Numbered from the stretch's first letter, positions 9,552-16,769 are shown. The stretch: 64,000 bases of DNA from an uncultured Actinomycetota bacterium (GCA_963794995.1 CAWCFV010000002.1:2954722-3018721); one strand, 5' to 3'. Numbers and translations: made by a program. The notes: generated by a model from the letters alone, not told the origin.

Positions 9552-10097
9552 GTGACCCGGCGCAACAGGCTCATGGTGACCCGCGCACGCCGGCGCGGCC
9601 TCGCAGCGTTGGGAGCCGCCGCCCTCGGCCTGCTGGCCCTGGTGGCCGGCGCTCCGGGCGCCCAGGCGGCCGCCCCCGCCGGGTCGATCACGCCGTTCGT
9701 CAGCTGCTACTTCGACAACGGGAACGGCACGTACACCGTCAGCGTCGGGTACACGAGCAGCAACAGCGGCACGGTGAGCATCCCGGTCGGTACGGACAAC
9801 CGGGTCACCTTCGGCGCACAGGACCGCGGCCAGCCGACCTCGTTCGCGCCCGGCGTCCACAGCAACGTGTGGGCACCGACCCTGTCCACCACGGACATCT
9901 ACAACAACGTGAACTGGTCGCTGACCGGCAACACGGTGCGGCTGAGCACCCTGAACCAGTGCTCGATCCGGCCGGTGCCGGCCGGGGGCAACCTGGCCGC
10001 CGAGCTCGCGTTCGGCGCGGTCGTCACGACGGCGGGCGCCCTCGTGATGGGTGAGCGCCGTCGGCGTCGGGTCGCCTCCCCGGGAGGCACCCTGTGA
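9552..10097 (+). CDS. secreted beta-rich protein with C-terminal sorting-signal-like anchor (candidate exosortase substrate 1)
   Basis: AGGAG RBS at 9541; signal peptide ...[29 protein letters not shown]; core PFVSCYFDNGNGTYT...DRGQPTSFAPG; ends CSIRPVPAGG + hydrophobic helix + ERRRRR. Confidence 0.8.
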   Translation: MTRRNRLMVTRARRRGLAALGAAALGLLALVAGAPGAQAAAPAGSITPFVSCYFDNGNGTYTVSVGYTSSNSGTVSIPVGTDNRVTFGAQDRGQPTSFAPGVHSNVWAPTLSTTDIYNNVNWSLTGNTVRLSTLNQCSIRPVPAGGNLAAELAFGAVVTTAGALVMGERRRRRVASPGGTL

Positions 10098-10642
10098 CCC
10101 CCGCGCGCCGACCGCTGCGGTGGTTGGCACGCCGCCTGGCGACCGCCGCCGCGGTCGGTGCCGTGCTCGCAGGCGGCGTCGTGGGAGCGGCTCCGGCGTG
10201 GGCGGCGACGATCGACTGCACGCCGATGGGCGACCCGGCCTGCCGGGACCTGGCGCCGGTCGCCGAGTGCGTCTGGGACAACAAGGACGGCACCAAGACG
10301 GCGCTGTGGGGATGGGACAACCCCAGCACCTCCACCCTGCGCATCGACGTCGGCAACAAGAACAAGATGTCACCCGGCGCCGAGGACCAGGGCCAGCCGA
10401 CCCTGTTCCTCCCGGGGCGGACGCGCAACGTGTTCACCACGACGTACACCGGGACGTCCACGACCTGGCGGCTGGGCAACGAGACGGCCACGGCCGGCTC
10501 CGGCACCACCGCCTGCTCGACCAAGCCGGTCTCCCAGATCGGCAGCGTCGGCGTCCTGCTGCTCGCTGTTCTCGTGCTCGTCCTCACCTCGGCGCTCGCG
10601 CTCGTCGCGCGGCCGCGCCGGTCACCTGTGGAGGTCCGATGA
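10094..10642 (+). CDS. paralogous secreted protein with C-terminal sorting-signal-like anchor (candidate exosortase substrate 2)
   Basis: GTGA overlap; signal peptide ending AAPAWA; core PVAECVWDNKDGTKT...DQGQPTLFLPG; ends CSTKPVSQIG + VGVLLLAVLVLVLTSALALVA + RPRR. Confidence 0.82.
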   Translation: MTPARRPLRWLARRLATAAAVGAVLAGGVVGAAPAWAATIDCTPMGDPACRDLAPVAECVWDNKDGTKTALWGWDNPSTSTLRIDVGNKNKMSPGAEDQGQPTLFLPGRTRNVFTTTYTGTSTTWRLGNETATAGSGTTACSTKPVSQIGSVGVLLLAVLVLVLTSALALVARPRRSPVEVR

Positions 10643-11347
10643 AGGTCCTTGCCGTCGGGGCCCACCCCGACGACATCGAGCTCGGCTGCGCGGGGGCACT
10701 CGCGCGCCACGTCGCCGCCGGCGACGAGGTGACGATGCTCGTGCTCACGCCCGGCGAGAGCGGCCCGCAGGGGCTGACCTCGCGGGTCCGCGAGCAGGAG
10801 ACGGCGAGCGCGCTGCTCGGCGTCCCGGCTGATGTGGGGCCCGTTCGACGACGGGATGATCCCGGTGGGCCGTGAGATCGTGACCGTGCTCGACGAGGCG
10901 GTCGCCGTCACCGGTGCCGAGATCATCTACACCCACGCGCCGCACGACACCCACCAGGACCACGTCGCGACCTCGCAGGCAGCTCTCGCGGCGGCGCGGC
11001 GGATGTCCCGGGTCCTGTTCTACCAGTCGCCGTCGACCACGTCCTTCGACCCGACGGTGTTCGTCAACGTCGAGCGCACCCTCGGCGCCAAGCTGGACGC
11101 GCTGCGTGCGCACTGGTCGCAGGTCATGCAGTGCGCGATGGTCGACCTCGAGGCGGTCGAGGTGGGGGCGCGGTTCTGGGGTACCCGGGCCAAGGTCTCC
11201 TACGCCGAGGCGTTCGTGTCGCCCCGCTTCGTCTGGGAGATCGGCTCGCCGACCGACCGGCGCACGCAGCCGCCGGAGGCCGACGCCGAGGAGGCAGGCG
11301 CGAGCGCAGCAACGTCGGCGCCGCTGGTCGGGGGACTGCGGCCGTGA
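10639..11347 (+). CDS. PIG-L/LmbE family N-deacetylase; one indel near 10830
   Basis: MKVLAVGAHPDDIELGCAG (HPDD metal motif), R-x-x-E, THAPHDTHQDH, YAEAF. Confidence 0.88.
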
Positions 11348-14834: not shown

Positions 14835-16002
14835 CCGGTCCGCTGCGACTGACCGTGGCGGTGGGCACCCGCCCGGAGGTCGTCAAGCTCGCGCCCGTCG
14901 TGGCTGCGTTGCGGGGCGCCGGGCACGCCGTCCGGTGCGTCGGCGACGGGCAGCACACGGACCGGCGGCTCGCCGGCGACCTGTTCGCCGAGCTCGGCTG
15001 CCCCCGGACGAGACCTGGGCGCTGGCCGGCTCCGAGGGGGAGCGGGTCGGGGCGCTGCTGGCGCTCGCCTACCGCGAGCTCGAGGGGCACCGGCCGGACG
15101 CGACCGTGGTCCTGGGCGACACCTACACCGCACCGCTGGTCGCGATGGCCTCGCGCCGGGCAGGCGTCGGCGTCGTGCACGTCGAGGCGGGGCTGCGCTC
15201 GTTCAACGACGTGTCGATGGAGGAGTCCAACCGCCGGATGATGGCCTCGCTCGCGACGCTGCACCTGGCACCCACCGAGCTGGCCCGGAGGTTCCTGCTG
15301 CAGGAGGCGGTCGACCCCTCGCGGGTCCGCGTCGTCGGCAACCCGGTGCTCGACGCCGTCCGCCTCGAGGGGGTGGCGCGGGTGCCGATCGGGCGCCGGG
15401 CCGGGGTCCTGGTCACGGCGCACCGGGCCACCAACGTCGACGACCCCGAGCGGCTCGCCGTGCTGGTCCGGCTCGTCGAACAGCTCGCCGCCCGGCACGG
15501 CGGTGTCGTGTTCCCCGTGCACCCCCGGACGCGGGACCGGCTGGTGACCGCCGGCCTGTGGGAGGGCCTGGCCTCCCTCGCGCACCGTGACGGCGACGGC
15601 AGCCGGGGCGTGCACCTCGTCGAGCCCATGGGCTACGGCGACCTGCTCCGCGCGATGGCAGCCAGCGCGTTCGTCGTCACCGACAGCGGCGGCATCCAGG
15701 AGGAGGCGTCCTACCTGGGCGTCCCGGTCGTGGTCATGCGCACGACGACCCCCCGCTGGGAGGGCGTGCAGTCCGGGGCCGCGGTGCTCACCGGGCTCGA
15801 CGAGGCCCGCGTGCTCGACGCGGCGGCCGGCTTCGCCTCTCCCGCCGAGCTGGCCCGGGTCGCCGCCCTGCCGTGCCCCTACGGCGACGGCCGCACCGCC
15901 GAGCGGGTCGTCGAGGTCCTCGCCGAGCCGGAGGTCGCCGCGCTCCTGCAGCCGCGCGAGCCCCGGCTGGCGGCCGCCCTGCCGGCTCGCGTCCCGTCGT
16001 GA
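14831..16002 (+). CDS. wecB: UDP-N-acetylglucosamine 2-epimerase (non-hydrolysing); one indel near 15000
   Basis: GTRPEVVKLAP, GQH, VLGDT, HVEAGLRS, EESNR, GNPVLD, TAHRATNVD, TDSGGIQEEA, PYGDG. Confidence 0.9.
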
Positions 16003-16769
16003 CGACCGGCGGGGTACCGGTCCACGCGGTCACCGTCGACCTGGACGACACCCTCTACCCGCAGTCGGCCTGGCTGGCCGGGGCCTGGGCTGCCGTCGCG
16101 GACGAGGCCGGCCGGCACGGGCTCGACCCGGTGGCCGTGCACGACGGCCTGCTCGCCGCCTGCGCCGAGGGGTCGGACCGCGGCGGCATCATCGACCGGG
16201 CCCTGGCCGCGGCGGGGCTGCCGCTGCCGCTCGCCACCGCGCTGGTACCCGGCCTCGTCTCGGTCTTCACCGGCCATCGCCCGGCCAGGCTGACCGCCTA
16301 CCCGGGAGCGGTCGAGGCCCTGGCCCGGCTCGCGTCGACCGTCCCCGTGGTCCTAATCACCGACGGCGTCCCCGCCGTCCAGCGCGCCAAGGTCGAGGCG
16401 CTGGGCCTCGGGTCCCTGCTCGCCCACGTGGTCGTGTCCGACGAGCTGGGCGGCCGGCACCTGCGCAAGCCGGACCCCGCGCCGTTCCGGCACGCGCTGG
16501 CGATGCTGGGGGCAGCCCCGGAGCACGTCGTGCACGTCGGCGACCGGCCGGAGAAGGACGTCCGCGGCGCGGCGGCAGCCGGTATGCGCTGCGTGCGGGT
16601 GACCACCGGGGAGTACGCGGCGGTGCCCCCGGAGCAGGAGCGGCCCTGGCGGGTCGCCGGCACGTTCGCGGAGGCCGTCGACCTGCTCGAGCCGCTGCTG
16701 GCCGTCGAGGCCGGACCGGCCGAACGCCCCCTCGCGGCGGGAACAGCCGGCGCCAGCGCTCGGTTGTGA
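15999..16769 (+). CDS. HAD-superfamily hydrolase (phosphatase)
   Basis: GTGA overlap; DLDDTLY motif [19 protein letters not shown] motif IV. Confidence 0.9.

Follow-up and report, generated by a model that had tools for sequence, protein, structure and literature searches.

Gene content of the rho-rpmE interval

The window analysed here is the whole 64,000-nucleotide (nt) stretch of DNA from an uncultured Actinomycetota bacterium (G000:C2:2954722-3018721). Its source is a 3.55-Mb, two-contig genome (G000) with approximately 74% G+C. In the interval between rho and rpmE the window holds a cassette of eight genes on the + strand at 9552-16769, supported by position-specific GC (G+C at third codon positions, GC3, 0.93-1.00). 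The cassette encodes a small exosortase-family protein (E), two secreted paralogues that are its candidate substrates (A and B), and five putative sugar or ligase enzymes (Table 1). Six of the seven junctions are RTGA stop-start overlaps (GTGA at 10094, 11344, 14831 and 15999; ATGA at 10639 and 12751), and the only non-overlapping one is a 58-nt gap from the stop of E at 13287 to the start of F at 13346. In a relative assembled from short reads (L035) the eight genes are unbroken, and the 4-nt overlaps are kept at five junctions, from PIG-L to HAD.

The preliminary description of this DNA had listed eight co-oriented genes with six overlaps, and all of these were found in place. Its family assignments (PIG-L, QxxRW glycosyltransferase of family GT2, exosortase-like protein, HEAT/ATP-grasp protein, epimerase and HAD hydrolase) were borne out by Pfam and NCBIfam. 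The gene list stood at the level of families; frameshifts in four of the genes had been overlooked. A promoter and terminator scan gave no + strand sites within 9100-17200. No RNA sequencing run holding the locus turned up, and four soil DNA runs from one study contained 5-11% of the sampled words.

Table 1. Genes of the cassette and its flanks (window coordinates; aa, amino acids).
Feature	Position	Strand	Basis and characteristics
Substrate paralogue A, 181 aa	9552..10097	+	Signal peptide, Ig-like beta-sandwich, C-terminal helix, RRRRR
Substrate paralogue B, 182 aa	10094..10642	+	Domain as in A; helix, RPRR
PIG-L/LmbE-family deacetylase	10639..11347	+	PF02585; AHPDD and HxDTHQDH motifs
Membrane GT2, synthase-type glycosyltransferase	11344..12754	+	PF13641/PF00535; D,D / DxD / TED / QRYRW
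Exosortase-family protein E, 178 aa, four helices	12751..13287	+	TIGR04178, PF09721
Protein F: N-terminal membrane helix, HEAT-like domain (ARQWEP motif), linker, ATP-grasp ligase	13346..14834	+	HEAT_2, ATPgrasp_Ter
WecB, non-hydrolysing UDP-GlcNAc 2-epimerase	14831..16002	+	PF02350, 268 bits
HAD-IA family phosphatase-like hydrolase	15999..16769	+	PF00702, 78 bits; DLDDT nucleophile motif
rho, left flank	7230..9237	+	L035 rho as tblastn query matched at 7230-7721 (frame 3) and 8008-9234 (frame 1)
rpmE, right flank	16873..17091	+	Translation; synteny
prfA, 3' of rpmE	17149-18255		

An exosortase-family protein outside the named subfamilies

Protein E passed the cut-offs of two signature models, TIGR04178 (39.5 bits, cut-off 23) and PF09721 (26.5 bits, cut-off 25.7), and its distant homologues at L074, L076, L088 and L105 also passed the exosortase signature cut-off. 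Cys75, Asn114, Arg117 and His137 were invariant in an alignment of 16 E sequences with 58-100% identity (alignment A1). The AlphaFold2 (AF2) model of E (predicted local distance difference test, pLDDT, 87.6; predicted template modelling score, pTM, 0.80) has four long helices with the invariant residues near one end. On these grounds E is assigned to the exosortase/archaeosortase family, as a predicted polytopic membrane protein with conserved Cys, Arg and His. It is the one exosortase-family gene product of G000.

The best named NCBIfam 20.0 subfamilies all stayed below their cut-offs (XrtS 41 vs 145 bits, XrtR 23 vs 150, XrtX 21 vs 170), as did ArtC (19 vs 100), and the distant homologues had no named Xrt or Art subfamily over cut-off either. 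Public names of E homologues are generic, namely 'exosortase/archaeosortase family protein' and in a few cases 'carbamoyl-phosphate synthase large subunit'. A Foldseek search of the PDB with the E model gave no match at E-values up to 0.001, and a profile search of the PDB sequences with alignment A1 gave nothing meaningful. A complex prediction that paired E with residues 120-181 of A, which include its tail, scored 0.00 against a mark of 0.32, a result that weighs neither way on binding.

Secreted proteins with a common C-terminal signal

A and B each have a signal peptide and end in a helix and an Arg cluster. They matched no Pfam or NCBIfam family and no sorting-domain model at E-values up to 0.01. 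Their homologues in Geodermatophilus and Amycolatopsis had no NCBIfam match, and 16 substrates searched against Pfam at E-values up to 1 gave scattered chance matches only. In the ESM Atlas, A matched 'hypothetical protein' clusters of Actinomycetota only. The AF2 model of A (pLDDT 78.5) shows a small beta-sandwich (strands at 46-130) and a helix at 148-173, and a disulfide between the conserved Cys52 and Cys137 probably closes the sandwich; Foldseek found no match to the model in the PDB at E-values up to 0.001. The only residues invariant across 16 diverse A/B members were N83, G101 and C137.

The tail of A reads C-S-I-R-P-V-P-A-G-G-N followed by the helix and RRRRR, and that of B reads C-S-T-K-P-V-S-Q-I-G-S followed by the helix and RPRR. 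Among 74 tails the signal was found to be tripartite, with a conserved Cys, a [LVM]-P-x-x-G motif abutting the membrane helix without a spacer, and the Arg cluster. Sporichthyaceae-type tails follow C-[AS]-x-[KR]-P-V-[PS]-x-x-G-[NS] and Geodermatophilaceae tails C-P-x-S-T-[EQ]-[LM]-P-[AE]-[DE]-G-N-G, in both cases with the hydrophobic helix and Arg cluster directly after. Outside the tail the A/B-type proteins diverge to 21-36% identity, and the tripartite tail is kept across classes. According to a preprint (Haft 2023), direct contact of motif and helix, with no spacer, sets signals that membrane-embedded enzymes cleave apart from LPXTG signals. The tails differ from the LPXTG type in having neither Thr at position 4 nor a spacer between motif and helix, and the Gram_pos_anchor model (PF00746) matched 1 of 16 members weakly (E-value 0.071). 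Among the 28,830 open reading frames (ORFs) of G000, A and B were the sole matches of the substrate profiles; the tail profile recovered them at an E-value of 1e-9 and the next match was at 0.012. The A/B-type tails define a new predicted C-terminal sorting signal for Actinomycetota.

Recurrence of the cassette and co-occurrence of its genes

With E as query, matches were obtained in 20 of 61 related genomes (G000 included), among them 17 of the 36 genomes of its own family. Sixteen loci were fetched from these genomes. In fourteen of them the rho-rpmE interval contains the full cassette, including one to three A/B paralogues; in G041, a complete genome of another family, the cassette lies away from rho-rpmE, and the remaining locus, in G044, has a different cassette. 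A scan of species-representative genomes with the alignment of E gave 79 public loci, several of which overlap the sixteen. GT2, E, F, WecB and HAD were colinear in 76 of the 79, the other three being cut by contig ends. PIG-L was detected in 72 loci and A/B-type genes in 64 (tblastn). In 34 loci PIG-L and the substrates precede GT2, and in 37 they follow HAD; gene order varies and the membership stays. The unit is flanked by rho and rpmE in 19 loci of this set.

Carriers among metagenome-assembled genomes (MAGs) are labelled Sporichthyaceae, Acidothermus, Acidothermaceae, Frankiaceae, Mycobacteriales, Nanopelagicales, Acidimicrobiia and, once, 'Acidobacteria'. Cultured carriers belong to Geodermatophilus, Blastococcus, Modestobacter, Klenkia, Trujillonella and Goekera, and include Amycolatopsis pigmentata. 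The check named in the preliminary description, whether the genes recur as a unit, came out in its favour: the core is colinear in records that span Sporichthyaceae-like, Acidothermus-like, Frankiaceae-labelled, Geodermatophilaceae, Amycolatopsis, Nanopelagicales and Acidimicrobiia organisms. Its placement of the cassette as an insertion also held, since rho adjoins rpmE in all four cassette-less family genomes that were examined.

The A/B profile and E picked the identical 17 of 36 family genomes (16 of 35 without G015, which is flagged as unpublished). G041 and G060 each hold both E-type and A/B genes; in G060, which the single-protein query had missed, an exosortase-family gene lies 0.7 kb from an A/B gene. 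Five genomes had the cassette and no adjacent substrate by tblastn, and all five encode A/B-type proteins (four of four without G463, also flagged as unpublished). Four of them are Acidothermus-like genomes with A/B-type genes elsewhere, and in the Amycolatopsis genome a divergent A/B-type protein is encoded beside the cassette. E always travels with GT2, the HEAT/ATP-grasp ligase, WecB and HAD, nearly always with PIG-L, and with one to four A/B-type proteins.

G041 has three further A/B genes outside its cassette (G041:C1 at 4048738, 1560423 and 5210019), indicating that the relation of one enzyme to few substrates can expand.

Fusions of the exosortase-family protein with the ligase

The reading frame of E was extended in each of the 79 loci to classify fusions. 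In 26 loci E is a separate protein of 153-200 aa. In 43, nearly all from Geodermatophilaceae, its frame continues into the HEAT-like domain (321-455 aa), and in 10 it extends across the ATP-grasp domain as well. Seven of the ten long fusions are credible (L076, L080, L088, L091, L095, L107 and L111), examples being those of Geodermatophilus obscurus DSM 43162 (698 aa) and of Acidimicrobiaceae MAGs. The other three were discounted, L054 and L058 as unreliable split matches from long-read MAGs and L108 for its garbled middle. Both fusions that were scanned in NCBIfam (L076 and L088) matched TIGR04178 together with a PRK12767-like ATP-grasp model, and the ESM Atlas matches for the fusion were ATP-grasp clusters.

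In the six fusions displayed, the HEAT domain comes after the fourth exosortase helix with no further hydrophobic helix in between; stand-alone F begins with one. This arrangement fits a cytoplasmic C terminus of E and a ligase that is membrane-tethered and cytoplasmic. The fusions of E with HEAT and ATP-grasp domains add weight to a connection of sorting with the enzymes that modify the sugar.

The predicted cytoplasmic tail of stand-alone E, PRAARVSDVL (window 13237-13287; A1 columns 162-178), is almost invariant in sequences of 58-100% identity and resembles the linker start of the fused forms (R-A-E-Q-D-V). This tail is possibly a contact with F.

Predicted enzymes for glycan synthesis and ligation

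The first piece of PIG-L matched PF02585 with 48.8 bits (cut-off 28.2) and the second with 27.1, just under the cut-off. The nearest solved structures are TT1542, diacetylchitobiose deacetylase and BshB1, and the best NCBIfam matches (BshB1, MshB and Mca) lay far below their equivalog cut-offs (BshB1 90 vs 182.5 bits). GT2 has the general features of its family and the QxxRW motif. Its best NCBIfam match was PgaC_IcaA (TIGR03937) at 134 bits against a cut-off of 422 (133 for the intact orthologue), so it is not a PgaC_IcaA equivalog. The XrtG-associated model TIGR03111 gave 56 bits against 364 (55 for the intact orthologue), and none of the GT2 models associated with XrtG or XrtP was over cut-off.

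F matched HEAT_2 (28.5 bits), ATPgrasp_Ter (62 bits) and a PRK12767-like model (163 bits, below cut-off), and its orthologue in L035 is one unbroken ORF of 501 aa. For WecB, the intact L035 orthologue scored 256.5 bits with TIGR00236 (cut-off 210.15), and the larger piece in the window alone scored 206. The HAD protein reached 98 bits with TIGR02253 against a cut-off of 170 and is thus no equivalog of that model.

Frameshifts in the assembly

The reading frame changes within four of the eight cassette genes: in PIG-L at approximately 10822-10842 (one base, beside short G/C runs), in GT2 at approximately 11453, in F at approximately 13746-13753 and in WecB at approximately 15004-15007, the last two at C5 runs. 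As a consequence, the frames that begin at 10639, 11344 and 14831 are interrupted. The whole window was also compared with ORFs on contig C10 of G006, a relative assembled from short reads. Genes whose G006 orthologues Pfam assigns to ATP synthase beta (four shifts), gamma (two) and b (one) and to methylmalonyl-CoA mutase (two) were broken in the same way, at 82-97% identity to the relative. The low-complexity N-terminal part of rho is also out of frame with its core (8008-9234) in this assembly.

Contigs assembled from the soil runs cover parts of the stretch and leave three of the four cassette sites unbridged. At the fourth site, a short-read contig (run X1, span 10678-10872, depth 2.5) omits one base at 10822, which brings the halves of PIG-L into one frame. 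The cassette frameshifts are accordingly best read as assembly errors and not gene decay, since housekeeping genes are equally broken, three of the sites lie in C5 runs or beside short G/C runs and the short-read contig restores PIG-L; we treat the genes as functional. That the cassette is instead a decaying pseudogene cluster with four real frameshifts seems highly improbable to us, even though half of its genes change frame and the independent contig covers one site only. Such decay is at odds with the at least nine further frame changes in the ATP synthase and methylmalonyl-CoA mutase genes of the same window, with a GC3 of 0.93-1.00 on either side of every shift, and with the finding of no in-frame stops or deletions. 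Few-contig relatives in the family show split matches of a similar kind. We rejected the pseudogene reading on the shared housekeeping frame changes, the preserved GC3 and the short-read contig that omits the base at 10822.

The region 24190-36430 of the window is rich in one-base frame changes, and the affected genes are those for ATP synthase b, gamma and beta and for methylmalonyl-CoA mutase, and an unnamed 364-aa ORF. The single sortase gene of the genome (G000:C2:2071499-2071892) likewise lies in two frames. One-base indels are frequent in this assembly, and with so many in housekeeping genes, gene calls from the genome will be fragmented.

Proposed function and alternatives

We consider it probable that the cassette forms a module dedicated to protein sorting and glycan synthesis around an unnamed exosortase subfamily, in which the enzyme, its cognate substrates and the glycan enzymes act together. 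A and B would be exported and held by the C-terminal helix, and the exosortase would cut at the motif, on the outer face of the membrane, via a thioester on Cys75. An amine would then resolve the thioester intermediate, leaving the protein covalently anchored and not released. For cleavage and transfer to an amine we follow the speculative model for ArtA, as given in PMC7157517. The acceptor would most likely be built on the cytoplasmic side by the neighbouring enzymes. WecB would provide UDP-ManNAc, GT2 would make and export a GlcNAc/ManNAc glycan or glycolipid, and PIG-L would free an amine by N-deacetylation. This amine may then be amidated with an amino acid by the ATP-grasp ligase, which the HEAT domain tethers or fuses to the exosortase, and HAD may take a phosphate off an intermediate.

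More specifically, and only tentatively, we suggest that the exosortase could join the new C terminus of the Ig-like proteins to the cassette-made amine on an amino-sugar glycan or glycolipid, exposed by PIG-L and perhaps extended by the ligase, whose tethering would couple acceptor synthesis with sorting. If true, this would amount to a bacterial protein anchoring to a glycan in monoderms, similar to glycosylphosphatidylinositol (GPI) anchoring, and to the first exosortase system with all acceptor-building genes identified. The cassette bears on what exosortases attach their substrates to; the Haft 2023 preprint describes transpeptidation by exosortases as only suspected. The unit is small and self-contained, with one enzyme, one to four substrates and five sugar or ligase enzymes, and this compactness, together with the ligase fusions and the harmless cultured soil carriers, puts the nature of the acceptor within direct reach of genetic and mass-spectrometric tests.

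The locus could also be a surface-glycan operon only, for an exopolysaccharide or wall polymer, with E as a non-proteolytic partner or scaffold of GT2 and the ATP-grasp protein, and A and B as helix-anchored accessory or glycan-binding proteins that are never cleaved. We regard this as unlikely. The enzymes alone do make up a coherent amino-sugar pathway, E is fused to HEAT/ATP-grasp as a scaffold might be, and in six of ten other Actinomycetota loci the exosortase gene lies beside a GT2 gene with no A/B-type gene within approximately 3 kb (tblastn). However, a scaffold would not need the invariant Cys, Arg and His, the tripartite tails are kept across classes although the remainder of the proteins diverges to 21-36% identity, and E and A/B occurred together in every genome tested. 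Still less probable, to the point that we give it very little weight, is cleavage of A and B by the housekeeping sortase or another protease, with the exosortase-like gene acting elsewhere. The motif resembles L-P-x-x-G, most clearly in the L-P-[AE]-[DE]-G-N-G of Geodermatophilaceae, and the weak Gram_pos_anchor match in 1 of 16 members (E-value 0.071) points the same way, as does the one sortase gene of the genome. Against this, position 4 of the motif is Asp, Glu or Val and not Thr, the spacer between motif and helix is absent, A and B match no anchor model at E-values up to 0.01, the sortase gene is approximately 0.9 Mb away, and across the family the A/B genes are present or absent precisely as the exosortase gene is.

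Several points weigh against a sorting module that couples E, its substrates and the glycan enzymes. All the support for it is computational, and cleavage, anchor and glycan are inferred. E is far smaller than classical EpsH, and PF09721 was aligned over its last third only (profile positions 170-252 of 254). The motif is loose; B has V-S-Q-I-G without Pro, and the Cys is the only invariant tail residue. This Cys could take part in a disulfide, or it could be modified as in Cys-bearing signals, and a UniRef record names the Amycolatopsis homologue 'MYXO-CTERM domain-containing'. The genome does encode one sortase. PIG-L, the ATP-grasp ligase and HAD are without signal peptides, so that an acceptor of their making has to cross the membrane, for which the cassette offers GT2 itself and no other flippase. 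It has no dehydrogenase for a uronic acid, which limits alternatives of the amidoligase type. Short-read support for intact frames comes from a single contig of depth 2.5 at one of the four frameshift sites.

The record with the MYXO-CTERM label is P0146, the A/B homologue of Amycolatopsis pigmentata; other substrate homologues are named 'hypothetical'. The label indicates that automatic rules confuse the Cys-bearing tail with the signal of a different enzyme family.

Comparison with known systems

The cassette fits no sorting-domain model and none of the named Xrt subfamilies, nor was a publication on it found. We regard it, on sequence comparison, as a new and unnamed exosortase system, though not a new principle. 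The view in the preliminary description that no named system applies was upheld, as NCBIfam 20.0 yields only the generic exosortase/archaeosortase signature for E. A literature search, with supplementary files outside its scope, found no description of the eight-gene unit, and in the sole paper with both 'exosortase' and 'ATP-grasp' the terms occur in the reference list only.

XrtS (NF033767), XrtR (NF012138) and XrtX (NF046081) are small exosortases of similar length to E (profiles of 155-168 positions). As its best named matches they cover nearly the whole protein and are set apart from it by score, and XrtS was over cut-off in none of 201 sampled Actinomycetota genomes. The XrtG system of Gram-positive bacteria pairs an exosortase-family protein with a GT2 (TIGR03111) in monoderms, a likeness that the cassette shares. 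Unlike the XrtG system, the cassette adds clear substrates and four further enzymes, and E had no match to XrtG at E-values up to 0.01. In the mycothiol and bacillithiol pathways (MshA2/MshB/MshC; BshA/BshB/BshC) a glycosyltransferase and a phosphatase act, a PIG-L enzyme frees the amine of GlcN, and an ATP-dependent ligase follows. The cassette shares this deacetylate-then-ligate logic but has a membrane synthase-type GT2, an ATP-grasp ligase, a sortase-like enzyme and secreted proteins. Capsule synthesis in Campylobacter likewise pairs an ATP-grasp amidoligase with a HAD phosphatase.

With the PEP-CTERM/XrtA (EpsH) system of diderms, as outlined in PMC1569441 and the Haft 2023 preprint, the cassette shares the Cys/Arg/His triad, a locus within glycan-synthesis genes, the co-occurrence of enzyme and signal, and a tripartite signal that abuts the membrane (Pro-containing motif, helix and basic cluster). 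It differs in its monoderm host, in the 178-aa, four-helix E, and in a [LVM]-P-x-x-G motif after a conserved Cys in place of P-E-P, with no match to a sorting-domain model. Carriers have one to four mostly adjacent substrates per genome, not dozens, and the partner genes are PIG-L, HEAT/ATP-grasp, WecB and HAD.

The archaeosortase ArtA belongs to a homologous enzyme family, and an amine acceptor has been proposed for it too. According to PMC7157517, processing of PGF-CTERM proteins by ArtA depends on PssA and PssD, makers of an amine-bearing acceptor, and in the speculative model given there the amine of lipid-bound ethanolamine resolves the thioester. That proposed acceptor is a phospholipid headgroup, and the enzymes for it are syntenic with artA only in Methanosarcina; in contrast, the candidate acceptor enzymes of the cassette belong to sugar metabolism, their genes lie in cis with that of the sortase, and part of this machinery is fused to it.

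The presence of an exosortase in a monoderm actinobacterium, to which the preliminary description had drawn attention, was confirmed, but it is not exceptional in the phylum. The generic exosortase signature was over cut-off in 26 of 401 sampled Actinomycetota genomes (G000 counted; the sample includes G147, flagged as unpublished, which does not affect the number over cut-off). The ten other loci examined belong to other subfamilies. By tblastn none of the exosortases encoded there is similar to E, and at six of these loci a distantly related GT2 gene is the neighbour. Small exosortase-family genes of small-genome Actinomycetota (L126-L131, in G396, G418, G374, G079, G152 and G339) also lie next to a GT2. 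These GT2s are 19-29% identical to that of the cassette, and the exosortases are unrelated to E by tblastn.

In G044, a genome of another family, the rho-rpmE gap holds a different three-gene unit without PIG-L, ATP-grasp, WecB or HAD (L025, G044:C1:731409-749777, approximately 6730-12411, minus strand). It encodes a 175-aa secreted protein that ends in C-A-P-P-A-Q-L-P-E-A-P, a helix and RRR, together with a 557-aa exosortase-family protein (TIGR04178, 52 bits) and a 412-aa GT2 whose genes overlap by 4 nt.

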